Assembly: GCA_963931495.1 (NCBI GenBank) | Contig: OZ007020.1 | Coordinates: forward strand, 60,001-92,000 | Source: an uncultured Alphaproteobacteria bacterium | Lineage (GTDB): Bacteria > Pseudomonadota > Alphaproteobacteria > Rs-D84 | Length of the DNA stretch: 32,000 bases | Direction: 5' to 3' | Shown here: piece by piece, positions 23,219 through 25,716 of the stretch | Numbering within the stretch: position 1 is the stretch's first letter | How the letters are laid out: the number at the start of each line of letters is the position of its first letter | Position numbers and translations under genes: made by a program | The notes under the pieces: generated by a model | What the model was told of the DNA's origin: nothing | The model's input: only the letters and a program-made list of their open reading frames with translations | Databases searched by the model: none

Positions 23219-23677
23219 TTAGATTCGCGTGTTTTCCATAACATTACGGATGCAAGACACGACCTTTTTATCCATATACAACTGGTACAGTGTATCAACC
23301 GCCAAATTAGTGCACGCATCGGCCACAGACAAATATAATCTGTTACAAATCCATCCTGTTTCACCACAGTCAAATTTTACATTGTACCATGCCACACGAT
23401 TAACTTTTATGCCAGGGGCCTCGGTCGGGGTGGCGCGTTTTTGATATGACATATTATACGGAACAGAACTGTTCGCCGCGGTTTGTAATTGAACTTCGCG
23501 CAGTACCAATGGCCGCCCATTTAATGTTTGATGCGCCCAGAAATTTTTTGCCTGGGCAAAATAAAAACGCGCCATATTCAAATTAGTTTGCGGATATCCA
23601 CGATAGTACTTGTTGCCACGTGCATCATTAGAATATACCCCAGAATCATTAACTGTAATCACTTTATTTTCATTCAT
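23219..23677 (-). CDS. Hypothetical protein, 152 aa (orphan operon gene 5)
   Basis: ATG start 17 nt after the upstream stop. No recognisable domain. Confidence 0.7.
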   Translation of the reverse strand: MNENKVITVNDSGVYSNDARGNKYYRGYPQTNLNMARFYFAQAKNFWAHQTLNGRPLVLREVQLQTAANSSVPYNMSYQKRATPTEAPGIKVNRVAWYNVKFDCGETGWICNRLYLSVADACTNLAVDTLYQLYMDKKVVSCIRNVMENTRI

Positions 23678-23694
23678 ATTTTCATACCCTTTTA

Positions 23695-24372
23695 TTACTT
23701 TGTCCGTTGTTTATTACATTGCAAACGACTTATATGCGGCAATATATGTTGCGAATATATGCCAAAAAATAAATCTTCGGCACGTGCGTATAATCTTGGC
23801 ACTGATTTATCATTAATACAAATAACTTTTTCACCAATTTCCAGAATGTAACGCCGTTCTTTTTCATCTGCGGGTATGTGACATAACGCAACATTACCAC
23901 AGTATATCTTGAACATATACCCAACGCGCGTAATCACAATACCATCAGATTGACAACGACGCTTGTCCGCCGCGCGGTTATCTTTTATTATAACAATGTT
24001 AAACGGGTTATGCAGCCCACGACGAATACGTTCCAACGCAAACCAAGAACAAATGTCATCATCAGAGAAACAGTCCAGATACTTGTTATGTGTGATTTTA
24101 TCTGAAAACTGCTGGATAGCCGCCCGAATGCGATTACGCCGATTGGCAATTTTATATACACGATGCATCAAGCGATATGTCCCCACAGACAGTAATGGAT
24201 CATCTGATAAATTAATACGTGCACCCGATACCGTCAACGAAACATTCGTATAGAACGGATTATCGGGCATAATCACTATATCATTTATAAAAATTTTTCC
24301 GTCCTTGATAACCGCGTTACGCGCATCACGCATGCCACGACGCAAAGATTTCTGGACATCAGCACCATTCAT
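23695..24372 (-). CDS. Hypothetical protein, 225 aa (orphan operon gene 4)
   Basis: ORF track gives 23695..24546. I trimmed it to the ATG at 24372 (MNGADVQKSLRRG...), preceded by GGGG 7 nt upstream and a candidate TTGACA-N16-TAAAAT promoter. Confidence 0.65.
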   Translation of the reverse strand: MNGADVQKSLRRGMRDARNAVIKDGKIFINDIVIMPDNPFYTNVSLTVSGARINLSDDPLLSVGTYRLMHRVYKIANRRNRIRAAIQQFSDKITHNKYLDCFSDDDICSWFALERIRRGLHNPFNIVIIKDNRAADKRRCQSDGIVITRVGYMFKIYCGNVALCHIPADEKERRYILEIGEKVICINDKSVPRLYARAEDLFFGIYSQHILPHISRLQCNKQRTK

Positions 24373-24428
24373 AATAACCCCATTTATCAACAGGAATATT
24401 TTATACAAATAATATTGTTTGTCAATAT

Positions 24429-24794
24429 TTATCTTGACCGTTTCATACAAGATTCGCGAAACATCTGCCAAAACGCCGGCCCACCAAATTCCTGTGGGCA
24501 ATTTTTCGGGCTGCATGCCCAGCGACGCACTGGATTTGCCGCGCACATACGCGCAGGCACGCGGTTATGCAATTTATCAATGCATGCACGATATTCATCT
24601 ATGGCTTGTTCTAAATCATAATAAATGTATGCCCGTGATTCATACTGACACGAACCAGGGGTATAAAATTGCTTCATCACAACAGAAAAAACATCGCCCT
24701 GTTCAAAGATTTTTGCATTATAATTATAAATCCCATTATCTTTGAACATACAAACTTCGCCATTTTTATCAGAATATTTTGCATATATTTTCAT
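24429..24794 (-). CDS. Hypothetical protein, 121 aa (orphan operon gene 3)
   Basis: ORF track gives 24429..24863. I trimmed it to the ATG at 24794 (MKIYAKYSDKNGEV...), with GGGGG about 7 nt upstream. Confidence 0.65.
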   Translation of the reverse strand: MKIYAKYSDKNGEVCMFKDNGIYNYNAKIFEQGDVFSVVMKQFYTPGSCQYESRAYIYYDLEQAIDEYRACIDKLHNRVPARMCAANPVRRWACSPKNCPQEFGGPAFWQMFRESCMKRSR

Positions 24795-24808
24795 ATTACA
24801 GCCCCCAT

Positions 24809-25150
24809 TCATTTCATACAGAATATCAAATAAATAAAAGATCGCAATAAAAGTCTGCCACAATGGCCAAAACTATTTTTTAATTTATGTGCGGTTATAA
24901 CGGTATTGCTGTGGGCGTTTGTGGTCAGGACAAAATCAGACCCATATATATAATAATTTTTGCCGCGCCGAATAACAGAATCTGGCAATGTGGCCGCCAC
25001 CACCGCACGAGGCCCCGCAACAACATCATCTGTTTCCAGATTCAAATTACGCTTTATGCGTAACGCCCCCAATCCCGCCGCGTGTAAAGATTGTACCGAA
25101 TTTTTCATCCATCCCAAAATACAAAGAAATCTGATACCGCGCAAAGTCAC
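24809..25150 (-). CDS. Hypothetical protein, 113 aa (orphan operon gene 2); weak DUF4258-like pattern
   Basis: The GTG start overlaps the upstream stop (GTGA at 25147-25150). SLHAAGLGALRIKRNLNLETDDVV...GKNYYIYGSDFVLTTNAHSNTVITAHKL loosely follows HA..R..eRgi....v......r..y......vv......vITvy. An alternative ATG start lies at 25108. Confidence 0.55.
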   Translation of the reverse strand: MTLRGIRFLCILGWMKNSVQSLHAAGLGALRIKRNLNLETDDVVAGPRAVVAATLPDSVIRRGKNYYIYGSDFVLTTNAHSNTVITAHKLKNSFGHCGRLLLRSFIYLIFCMK

Positions 25151-25716
25151 GCTTTTTTATTATCCACGCCATTTACATATACATCACGCAGTTTTTTATA
25201 TGTATCAATTTTGTTATATTCGGTCGGGGTTAAAATAGCGGTAATCAGATGCGGCACAACCACACCATCAAATAGAAACTTTATTATATTACCAACTTTG
25301 ATTTCTGGTTTAATGTATTTCAATTCTTTCTGTCCTGGGTCAAAGGCACGCAACCGCCCCCCTGCATCATGCACAGCAATAATTTGATGGCCATTGATTA
25401 TGCGTTCTTTTTTACCTTCTTTGATGTCTTGCGCCGCGCCATCCAAATTTTCTATACGCGCCGTGGTCAAGACCACACAATCCAATCCAGCATCTGTGGC
25501 GTATTTACAGAAAACTTTTGCAATACCCGTGCACCCCGCAACCATACGCGGAATCTTTTGATTTATAATATCATCGGCAGATAAAGAAAAATGCCAATCT
25601 ATTCCGCTAACATTATGTTGCCGCATATATTCCGCGCGATTGTTTGGCCCAACCGCGCCGTTGAACATCGTGTGCATTTTATCCAACAAAGATTGTATTT
25701 TATCGTCTTGCGTCAT
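25147..25716 (-). CDS. Predicted transglutaminase/papain-fold cysteine enzyme, 189 aa (orphan operon gene 1)
   Basis: Ordered Cys62 (VAGCTGIAKVF), His110 (INGHQIIAV) and Asp126 (RAFDPG), with spacing typical of transglutaminase-like cores. No signal peptide. Confidence 0.7.
   Translation of the reverse strand: MTQDDKIQSLLDKMHTMFNGAVGPNNRAEYMRQHNVSGIDWHFSLSADDIINQKIPRMVAGCTGIAKVFCKYATDAGLDCVVLTTARIENLDGAAQDIKEGKKERIINGHQIIAVHDAGGRLRAFDPGQKELKYIKPEIKVGNIIKFLFDGVVVPHLITAILTPTEYNKIDTYKKLRDVYVNGVDNKKA

Follow-up and report, generated by a model that had tools for sequence, protein, structure and literature searches.

LapG (PDB 4fgo), the vasohibins and NTAQ1 are enzymes with residues in the order Cys...His...Asp, in which a long helix carries the cysteine in its N-terminal part and successive beta-strands carry, or are followed by, the histidine and aspartate. 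LapG works in the periplasm and depends on calcium, and vasohibin requires SVBP. The glutamine deamidase of polymorphic toxin systems known as papain fold toxin 1 (PF15644) forms the C-terminal tip of large secreted toxins. Chromosomal hotspots or flexible islets, a concept from comparative genomics, are flanked by core genes and often lie beside rRNA or tRNA genes, and small adjacent or overlapping gene pairs are a feature of type II toxin-antitoxin (TA) and effector-immunity systems. We compared these systems with a block of five minus-strand genes, g1 to g5 (positions 23219-25716), in a 32,000-nt stretch of DNA from an uncultured alphaproteobacterium of the Rs-D84 lineage (positions 60,001 to 92,000 of contig OZ007020.1, GenBank assembly GCA_963931495.1); the whole stretch is referred to below as the window. 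With moderate confidence we read the block as the current cargo of a variable interval flanked by the ribosomal RNA (rrn) operon, consisting of a conserved enzyme gene (g1), a patchily distributed gene (g2), a possible partner of g1 (g3) and a g4-g5 module.

The interval resembles the described hotspots in its conserved flanks, its variable cargo and its mosaic pattern of synonymous divergence (dS), as well as in the TA-like and regulator genes that it contains in some lineages. It differs from them in that the cargo comes from a small clade-private pool and not from the general mobile gene pool, in that no integrase, transposase or repeats were seen in the interval, and in its setting, a genome of about 1 Mb in which such flux is less expected. 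The g1 product shares with LapG, the vasohibins and NTAQ1 the order of the three residues and their placement relative to helix and strands, but it has no significant sequence or profile match to them and a TM (template modelling) score of only ~0.35-0.39, and it is a small (189-214 amino acids, aa), single-domain, cytoplasmic protein. PF15644 weakly matches the catalytic segment in some relatives of g1, whereas g1 itself is a vertically inherited stand-alone gene. Likeness to TA and effector-immunity pairs is seen in the small adjacent or overlapping pairs (g3'-g1 in the sister loci L019 and L029; g4-g5) and in the arrays of g3 paralogues; the block differs from such pairs in having no family match, no patchy putative toxin and no mobile context.

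Variation of the rrn-flanked interval among sister lineages

Using g1 we retrieved 38 species-level loci, with several further loci obtained through other proteins, and mapped the genes by tblastn and by profile hidden Markov models over six-frame open reading frames (ORFs); g1 is present in all 38 loci by selection. The interval can be delimited by the rrn operon on one side and by VIT1, the 3-methyladenine glycosylase gene (MPG), Sua5 and PPDK on the other. The order, content and copy number of the block genes differ in every sister lineage examined. Loci L022 and L025 read 5S-g5-g4-...-g1-g3-VIT1, L030 reads 5S-g3-g5-g4-...-g1, and L057 reads 5S-g3-g5-g4-zeta-g1-g2-g3'-...-H-g4'. The arrangement is 5S-(other gene)-g3'-g1-F36-g3-H-g3''-g4-g5 in L019, g1-F36-g3-H-H in L055 (g1 89% identical), and 5S-g3-...-g3'-g4-g5, with no g1, in L056. 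More distant lineages keep g1 among entirely different neighbours. The initial annotation had presented the five genes as one operon; given these other orders, subsets and copy numbers, the block is not a fixed unit of five genes.

Other families found in the interval of sister lineages are H (an alpha/beta serine hydrolase), F36, Zeta_toxin/AAA_33 kinases and family J. The F36 proteins (341-346 aa; L019:1855-2880, L055:931-1956 and L059:203-1243) combine a winged helix-turn-helix (wHTH) with a histidine-kinase-like ATPase domain (HATPase_c_2) and a STAS-like DUF4325 domain.

Divergence is mosaic both between and within lineages. Between L019 and L056, VIT1 is 98% identical with dS = 0 while MPG has dS = 1.3, and the block proteins are 95% (g5), 83% (g3) and 70% (g4) identical. 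Strain L006, of the window species, matches the block at 98-100% identity outside one ~300-bp tract that is 47-88% identical (L006:962-1390, corresponding to about window 24580-24870). This tract takes in the 3' end of g2 as well as the N-terminal two-thirds of g3, and carries the g3 allele type of sister species. Chimeric or fused genes were found in L030 (H/g5) and L023 (g1-J). The flanks of the interval are very conserved, with 95-100% nucleotide identity in rrn and 93-95% amino acid identity in PPDK, and homologous exchange anchored in these flanks is the simplest reading of how the genes would move. Recombination between and within lineages would then shuffle, duplicate, delete and exchange a small pool of clade-restricted families, and the block would comprise at least three separate units and no dedicated five-gene system.

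A replacement was also seen next to the block in another strain of the window species. At L005:13130-13435 (equivalent to window 22051-22587), most of MPG is replaced by a 101-aa HTH_3/dnstrm_HI1420 gene of the HigA-like antitoxin type, which retains the first nine codons of the glycosylase (MIFQRDFYL).

A conserved family of predicted cysteine enzymes

The first gene, g1 (25147-25716, minus strand), encodes a cytoplasmic protein of 189 aa with a Cys62-His110-Asp126 triad and a predicted transglutaminase/papain-like fold. The residues C62 (GC[TS]G), H110 (GHQ) and D126 (FDPG) are invariant in 23 aligned sequences with 52-100% identity to the window protein, which bears out the Cys-His-Asp assignment made initially from the single sequence. 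In the AF2 model (predicted local distance difference test score, pLDDT, 91.9; predicted TM score, pTM, 0.88), C62 is located in the N-terminal portion of helix 57-75, H110 stands at the start of strand 109-116, and D126 comes after strand 122-125. The order of the triad in the alignment and its helix and sheet placement in the model match what defines the transglutaminase/papain-like superfamily. The top Foldseek matches in PDB were weak, and all were Cys-His-Asp proteins of transglutaminase/papain-like type: LapG, vasohibin 1/2, NTAQ1, Josephin-type clippases and arylamine N-acetyltransferase. No sequence-level match was found for the window protein in PDB or Pfam. PF15644 (Gln_amidase) gave a weak match across the Cys to His/Asp region in 3 of the 23 family members, with a best E-value of 0.0047 and a best score of 18.4 bits against a cut-off of 24.1 bits, and did not match the window protein itself.

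The triad, its sequence order, its secondary-structure context and the consistency of the Foldseek matches are the basis on which we file g1 as a new, divergent family inside the transglutaminase/papain-like superfamily. From this placement we infer thiol-dependent chemistry, either cleavage or transfer, at an amide or peptide bond. Cys62 would attack such a bond in a protein or peptide substrate, making the g1 product a putative deamidase, amidase or protease.

The relatives of g1 form 151 protein clusters at 90% identity, all within the Rs-D84/Enterousia-type clade. The gene was found in 38 species-level genomes, usually 0.1-1.5 kb from the 5S gene and in single copy per locus. An extended -10 box, TGGTATAAT (TGnTATAAT; 25725-25733, minus strand), ends 8 nt 5' of the g1 ATG. 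In 29 of 41 related loci, a -10 box with at least five of six matches, mostly TG-extended, lies 5-9 nt 5' of an in-frame start; this conservation reaches down to ~45% protein identity, where a few of the most distant cases are possibly due to chance. The conserved position of the box, 5-9 nt from the start, implies that g1 is expressed as a putatively leaderless mRNA from a conserved extended -10 promoter. We therefore treat g1 as a candidate stand-alone unit, which would be transcribed from this promoter, located just beyond the rrn terminator, and translated from the leaderless mRNA.

Most g1 orthologues are 213-214 aa long, and the window copy lacks their ~25-aa C-terminal tail. The stop codon of the window copy lies just past an A6 run (25147-25158; GATAATAAAAAAGCGTGA), and the out-of-frame continuation encodes RDFA, the start of the tail in the 213-214-aa orthologues. 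Because RDFA is still encoded out of frame, the 189-aa form appears to have arisen by a frameshift or deletion at this run.

Large proteins that could be taken for g1 paralogues were rejected as such, as they belong to the separate family J and include a g1 fusion only in L023. In that locus (L023:315-1805), g1 is fused in frame with a J domain of ~300 aa to give a product of 496 aa, and in L018 (8001-9481) J adjoins g1, with the J start on the g1 stop. Family J proteins (300-414 aa) have N-terminal repeats and a conserved C-terminal domain (…YYKFPK…RHDPVTIY…SNEGLLG…), and had no match in Pfam or PADLOC.

The orphan families g3, g4 and g5

The g3 gene (24429-24794, minus strand) encodes 121 aa from an ATG that is preceded at 7 nt by a GGGGG Shine-Dalgarno sequence; its open frame extends up to a TTG at 24863. 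The protein has a variable N-terminal half and a conserved C-terminal half with four invariant cysteines (C84, C94, C99, C116) spaced C-x9-C-x4-CP-x16-C, and is probably a small metal-binding protein. About a dozen of the closer lineages carry it, in as many as three paralogues per locus, and a single locus was recovered by a metagenome scan with g3. The start of g1 is overlapped by a g3 paralogue in L019 and L029, and g3 lies directly 3' of g1 in many lineages; this overlap and frequent adjacency suggest a functional tie between the two genes. The tie would not be obligatory: in L056 g3 occurs in the absence of g1, and distant lineages keep g1 but not g3. We regard g3 as a candidate partner or regulator of g1.

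The g4 gene (23695-24372, minus strand; open frame extending up to 24546) encodes a basic orphan protein of 225 aa with a net charge of +14. A word-indexed search returned two clusters, and an exhaustive phmmer search of 1.84 billion representative proteins returned 11 hits, eight of which are real relatives. The structural model of g4 (pLDDT 83.9, pTM 0.55) contains two small beta-sheet domains and long helices, and Foldseek found no credible neighbour for it in PDB or BFVD. The adjoining g5 gene (23219-23677, minus strand) encodes an orphan protein of 152 aa without a family match; SH3_3 appeared below threshold in only three of nine members. In per-member Pfam scans of g3, g4 and g5, only scattered sub-threshold matches were obtained.

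About ten lineages have g4, and about a dozen have g5. The two genes are adjacent, in either order, in nine lineages, and they are separable: they are split in L026 and L059, and g5 stands alone in L023, L029 and L038. We propose that g4 and g5 may act as a two-gene module, often with its own promoter. By hhalign, g3, g4 and g5 are mutually unrelated, and a database search with a concatenated g3+g4+g5 profile returned nothing. An apparent link between g5 and the alpha/beta hydrolase was rejected as an artefact of the chimeric gene in L030 (1524-2009), in which the first ~10 codons of the hydrolase (MANAIICHGV) are joined to g5; this gene created a false link in single-linkage clustering. In L022 (5962-6064), L025 (154-270) and L026 (37-167), g5 follows directly after the rrn terminator with a Shine-Dalgarno sequence (caggag). 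Because no promoter-like site is visible there, only the Shine-Dalgarno sequence, g5 may be expressed in these three loci through read-through from rrn.

g2, a patchily distributed DUF3781 gene

The g2 product belongs to DUF3781 (PF12636), with a score of 63.4 bits against a cut-off of 27 and a match to model positions 3-72 of 72. The family resemblance proposed initially, to DUF4258, was rejected, as DUF3781 was the sole Pfam family returned at E-values up to 1. We know of no function for the DUF3781 family. The gene (24809-25150, minus strand) encodes 113 aa if read from the GTG at 25150, and 99 aa from the ATG at 25108. The latter is the probable start, because it is preceded by a GGGA Shine-Dalgarno sequence and because the L057 orthologue, 75% identical, begins at the corresponding Met; in that locus a terminator hairpin lies between g1 and g2. 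The GTGA overlap of g1 and g2 described in the initial annotation is thus present in the DNA but probably not real as a translational overlap.

Among the loci examined, none but those of the window species and L057 contained g2, a patchy distribution that sets it apart as a putative second unit between g1 and g3. The copy in L057 led us to discard the view that g2 is unique to the window species. The C-terminal frame of g2 is determined by an A6 run at 24876-24881: where the run is A7 the product has 92 aa, and further frame variants among strains include a 235-aa fusion to the frame upstream of g3. These homopolymer-dependent variants, and a position after g1 in only some Enterousia-type lineages, distinguish g2 from DUF3781 as described elsewhere. 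The nearest plasmid relatives of g2, annotated as DUF3781, are from Firmicutes.

Host genome, codon usage and selection

Many metagenome contigs, the longest of 958,617 bp, carry exact copies of the block proteins in the same gene order, which comprises rrn, g1-g5, VIT1, MPG, Sua5/YrdC, PPDK, L21 and L27. The named relatives are Candidatus Enterousia and metagenome-assembled genomes labelled 'uncultured Alphaproteobacteria', from human, chicken and ruminant guts. The host is an uncultured gut alphaproteobacterium with a reduced genome of about 0.96 Mb, of the Candidatus Enterousia/Rs-D84 type. Enterousia is a member of the order Rs-D84, in which genomes measure 0.75-1.0 Mb and the tricarboxylic acid cycle and respiration are lacking (PMC12306168).

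The block genes have a GC content of 0.40-0.42 and a third-position GC content (GC3) of 0.35-0.41, compared to 0.40-0.49 and 0.40-0.51, respectively, in a set of 16 other genes. The AT-richness noted by eye in the initial annotation is therefore real but slight, and the codon usage of g1, g3, g4 and g5 is native, fitting the genome as well as that of core genes; g2 has the poorest codon fit in the block. Ratios of nonsynonymous to synonymous divergence (dN/dS) were calculated between lineages by the pairwise Nei-Gojobori method; some values for PPDK and VIT1 were alignment artefacts and were ignored. The ranges were 0.12-0.28 for g1, 0.12-0.38 for g3, 0.10-0.26 for g4 and 0.08-0.21 for g5, compared to 0.04-0.09 for Sua5 and 0.03-0.05 for PPDK. 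This indicates purifying selection on g1, g3, g4 and g5, with protein evolution faster than in core genes. With dN/dS well below 1 and native codon usage, these four are real genes. The initial annotation had weighed its proposal against the case of conserved core genes with ordinary composition. The outcome is divided, in that g1 is conserved clade-wide and composition is native in four of the five genes, whereas g3, g4 and g5 are accessory, fast-evolving and subclade-restricted.

Searches for toxin, defence and mobile-element relatives

Profile scans of the five proteins against Pfam, PADLOC, NCBIfam and PHROGs identified only DUF3781 for g2, and searches of PDB sequences with the single proteins and with family profiles gave no match. 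Four of the five products thus have no curated family, in agreement with their first description as mostly orphan. The five proteins had no PADLOC match at E-values up to 1, and the proteins of the sister loci matched only generic wHTH and P-loop profiles there. Among the TA, polymorphic-toxin and immunity profiles of Pfam, NCBIfam and PADLOC nothing was significant. No relatives of g3, g4 or g5 were found in viral contigs, and tblastn with g1 and g5 against phage genomes and plasmids found none. The toxin/immunity or phage-defence cassette to which the block had been likened has no counterpart in these results, which hold no significant profile match and no phage, plasmid or viral relatives of the proteins so searched.

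Alternative explanations

Several observations weigh against reading the block as separate units carried in a variable interval. The five genes are co-directional and tightly spaced, with no terminator separating g3 from g4, and so may be co-transcribed. Recurrence of the same few families in one interval could indicate that they belong to a functionally linked system whose layout is flexible. As to the units themselves, g3 is missing from the more distant lineages that retain g1, and in L056 it has no g1 nearby. For g1, the Foldseek matches in PDB had probabilities of 0.9-0.96 yet E-values of 0.037-0.13 and TM scores of 0.34-0.39, and no curated profile reached its threshold. If the recurrence of families reflected function, then g1, g3, g4 and g5, with or without g2, H, F36 and zeta, would make up one new multi-gene system, such as an undescribed defence or stress system, in which rearrangement is tolerated. 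The pool does recur only in this interval, always co-directional with rrn, and is tightly spaced in the window, but no subset is constant except g1. Moreover, L055 lacks g4 and g5, L056 lacks g1, g1 stands alone in most of the distant lineages, a promoter of its own precedes g4, PADLOC gave no match, and the three orphan families (g3, g4 and g5) are mutually unrelated. We consider a single system of this kind very unlikely. The chance that the ORFs are decaying pseudogenes or random frames in a junk spacer is smaller still and close to negligible. The g2 frame variants among strains (71, 78, 92, 99 and 113 aa and the 235-aa fusion) and the loss of the g1 tail in the window copy would fit decay, yet the dN/dS values well below 1 for g1, g3, g4 and g5, the intact ORFs with residues invariant across lineages, the confident AF2 models, and the Shine-Dalgarno sites and promoters in place have largely refuted it for these four genes.

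The genes could also be TA or toxin-immunity cassettes, with g1 as a papain-fold deamidase or protease toxin neutralised by g3 or g2, and g4 and g5 as a second toxin-antidote pair. Such cassettes would account for the weak PF15644 matches in members of the g1 family, for the small gene that adjoins or overlaps g1 in many lineages, and for the two to three g3 paralogues per locus, whose recombining, hypervariable N-terminal halves resemble immunity-gene arrays. Zeta-toxin/AAA_33 genes share the interval in sister lineages, and g4 and g5 remain adjacent in either order. However, a TA pair has its cognate antidote always present and a patchy or mobile spread, whereas g1 is a single-copy, syntenic gene beside rrn under purifying selection across 38 species-level genomes, and persists in more than 20 lineages without detectable g3. 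It has no N-terminal delivery or trafficking domain, and neither a significant toxin, antitoxin or immunity profile match (PADLOC, Pfam, NCBIfam) nor a link to mobile elements was found; on balance we think this explanation unlikely. Equally doubtful is the possibility that the products are effectors directed at a host or partner cell through non-Sec export, g1 being a deamidase or protease effector. Papain- and transglutaminase-like deamidases and proteases are common effector chemistry, as in Cif, OspI and LapG-like enzymes. The clade-restricted families with dN above that of core genes, and the reduced genomes and metabolically dependent lifestyle of the group (PMC12306168), would suit effectors. 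On the other side, the surroundings of the block yielded no secretion system, chaperone or signal, and g1 evolves conservatively for an effector, with a housekeeping-like fixed position and promoter. The most far-reaching proposal is that g1 founds an unrecognised family of small cytoplasmic transglutaminase-like enzymes present throughout Rs-D84, and is a leaderless deamidase or protease, hard-wired to rrn and sharing its terminator, that acts on the translation apparatus or on a partner-cell protein, while g3-g5 represent new folds in lineage-private modules exchanged through an rrn-anchored hotspot; we offer it as a speculation with a low probability of being correct.

Read as cargo of a variable rrn-flanked interval, the block offers a previously unannotated cysteine-enzyme family, widely conserved, with a clear triad and a conserved leaderless-type expression signal; a small interval in which streamlined genomes still exchange private genes; and three orphan families (g3, g4 and g5). 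The Rs-D84/Enterousia bacteria are uncultured inhabitants of human and animal guts, where they are widespread, and every gene retained in their ~1-Mb genomes is informative. The results remove the unsupported label of a defence or toxin cassette and provide concrete targets for the first functional studies of the lineage, without changing any paradigm. What is new is modest: a family within a known enzyme superfamily, and clade-private orphans in an ordinary kind of hotspot.

Transcription signals and surrounding genes

A complete rrn operon lies immediately upstream of the block on the same strand (16S, 29542-31043; tRNA-Ile(GAT), 29334-29410; 23S, 26016-29028; 5S, 25806-25920). It ends 3' of the 5S gene in a terminator with a 7-bp GC-rich hairpin followed by a T-run (25753-25771, minus strand), and this hairpin is also kept in most related loci. 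At the other end, a bidirectional terminator with an A-run, an 11-bp hairpin and a T-run (23172-23199) separates the convergent genes g5 and VIT1. Between them we confirmed the five minus-strand ORFs of the initial annotation with gaps of 14 nt (g2-g3), 56 nt (g3-g4) and 17 nt (g4-g5), together with both terminators, the leaderless-type promoter of g1 and a sigma-70-like promoter TTGACA-N16-TAAAAT 5' of g4 (24398-24425, minus strand; 11/12 matches). A GGGG Shine-Dalgarno sequence lies between the TAAAAT site and g4, and promoter sites of this type were also found 5' of g4 in L031 and L026. Terminators are thus present only at the two ends of the block, and the strong promoter-like site with its Shine-Dalgarno sequence lies inside it, before g4. 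Promoter-like sites are, in total, no more frequent in the region than chance would give (10 found compared to 11.7 expected), but the -10 box of g1 holds its place in about 24-29 of 41 related loci. No transmembrane or signal-like segment was seen in any of the five proteins, as initially reported, and the most hydrophobic stretch of the block, located in g1, corresponds to a pair of beta-strands in the model.

The spacer between the 16S and 23S genes contains only tRNA-Ile, without tRNA-Ala; in many Proteobacteria the rrn spacer commonly holds both the Ile and the Ala tRNAs. Elsewhere in the window, six consecutive ORFs of 172-478 aa (4249-11418) and a 716-aa ORF (14295-16445) have no Pfam match at E-values up to 1e-5; the family of the latter (F4) is conserved beside L21/L27 in sister genomes. 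The recognisable genes around these ORFs encode PBP1 (890-2938), inositol monophosphatase (3226-3930) and UvrD (11429-13558).

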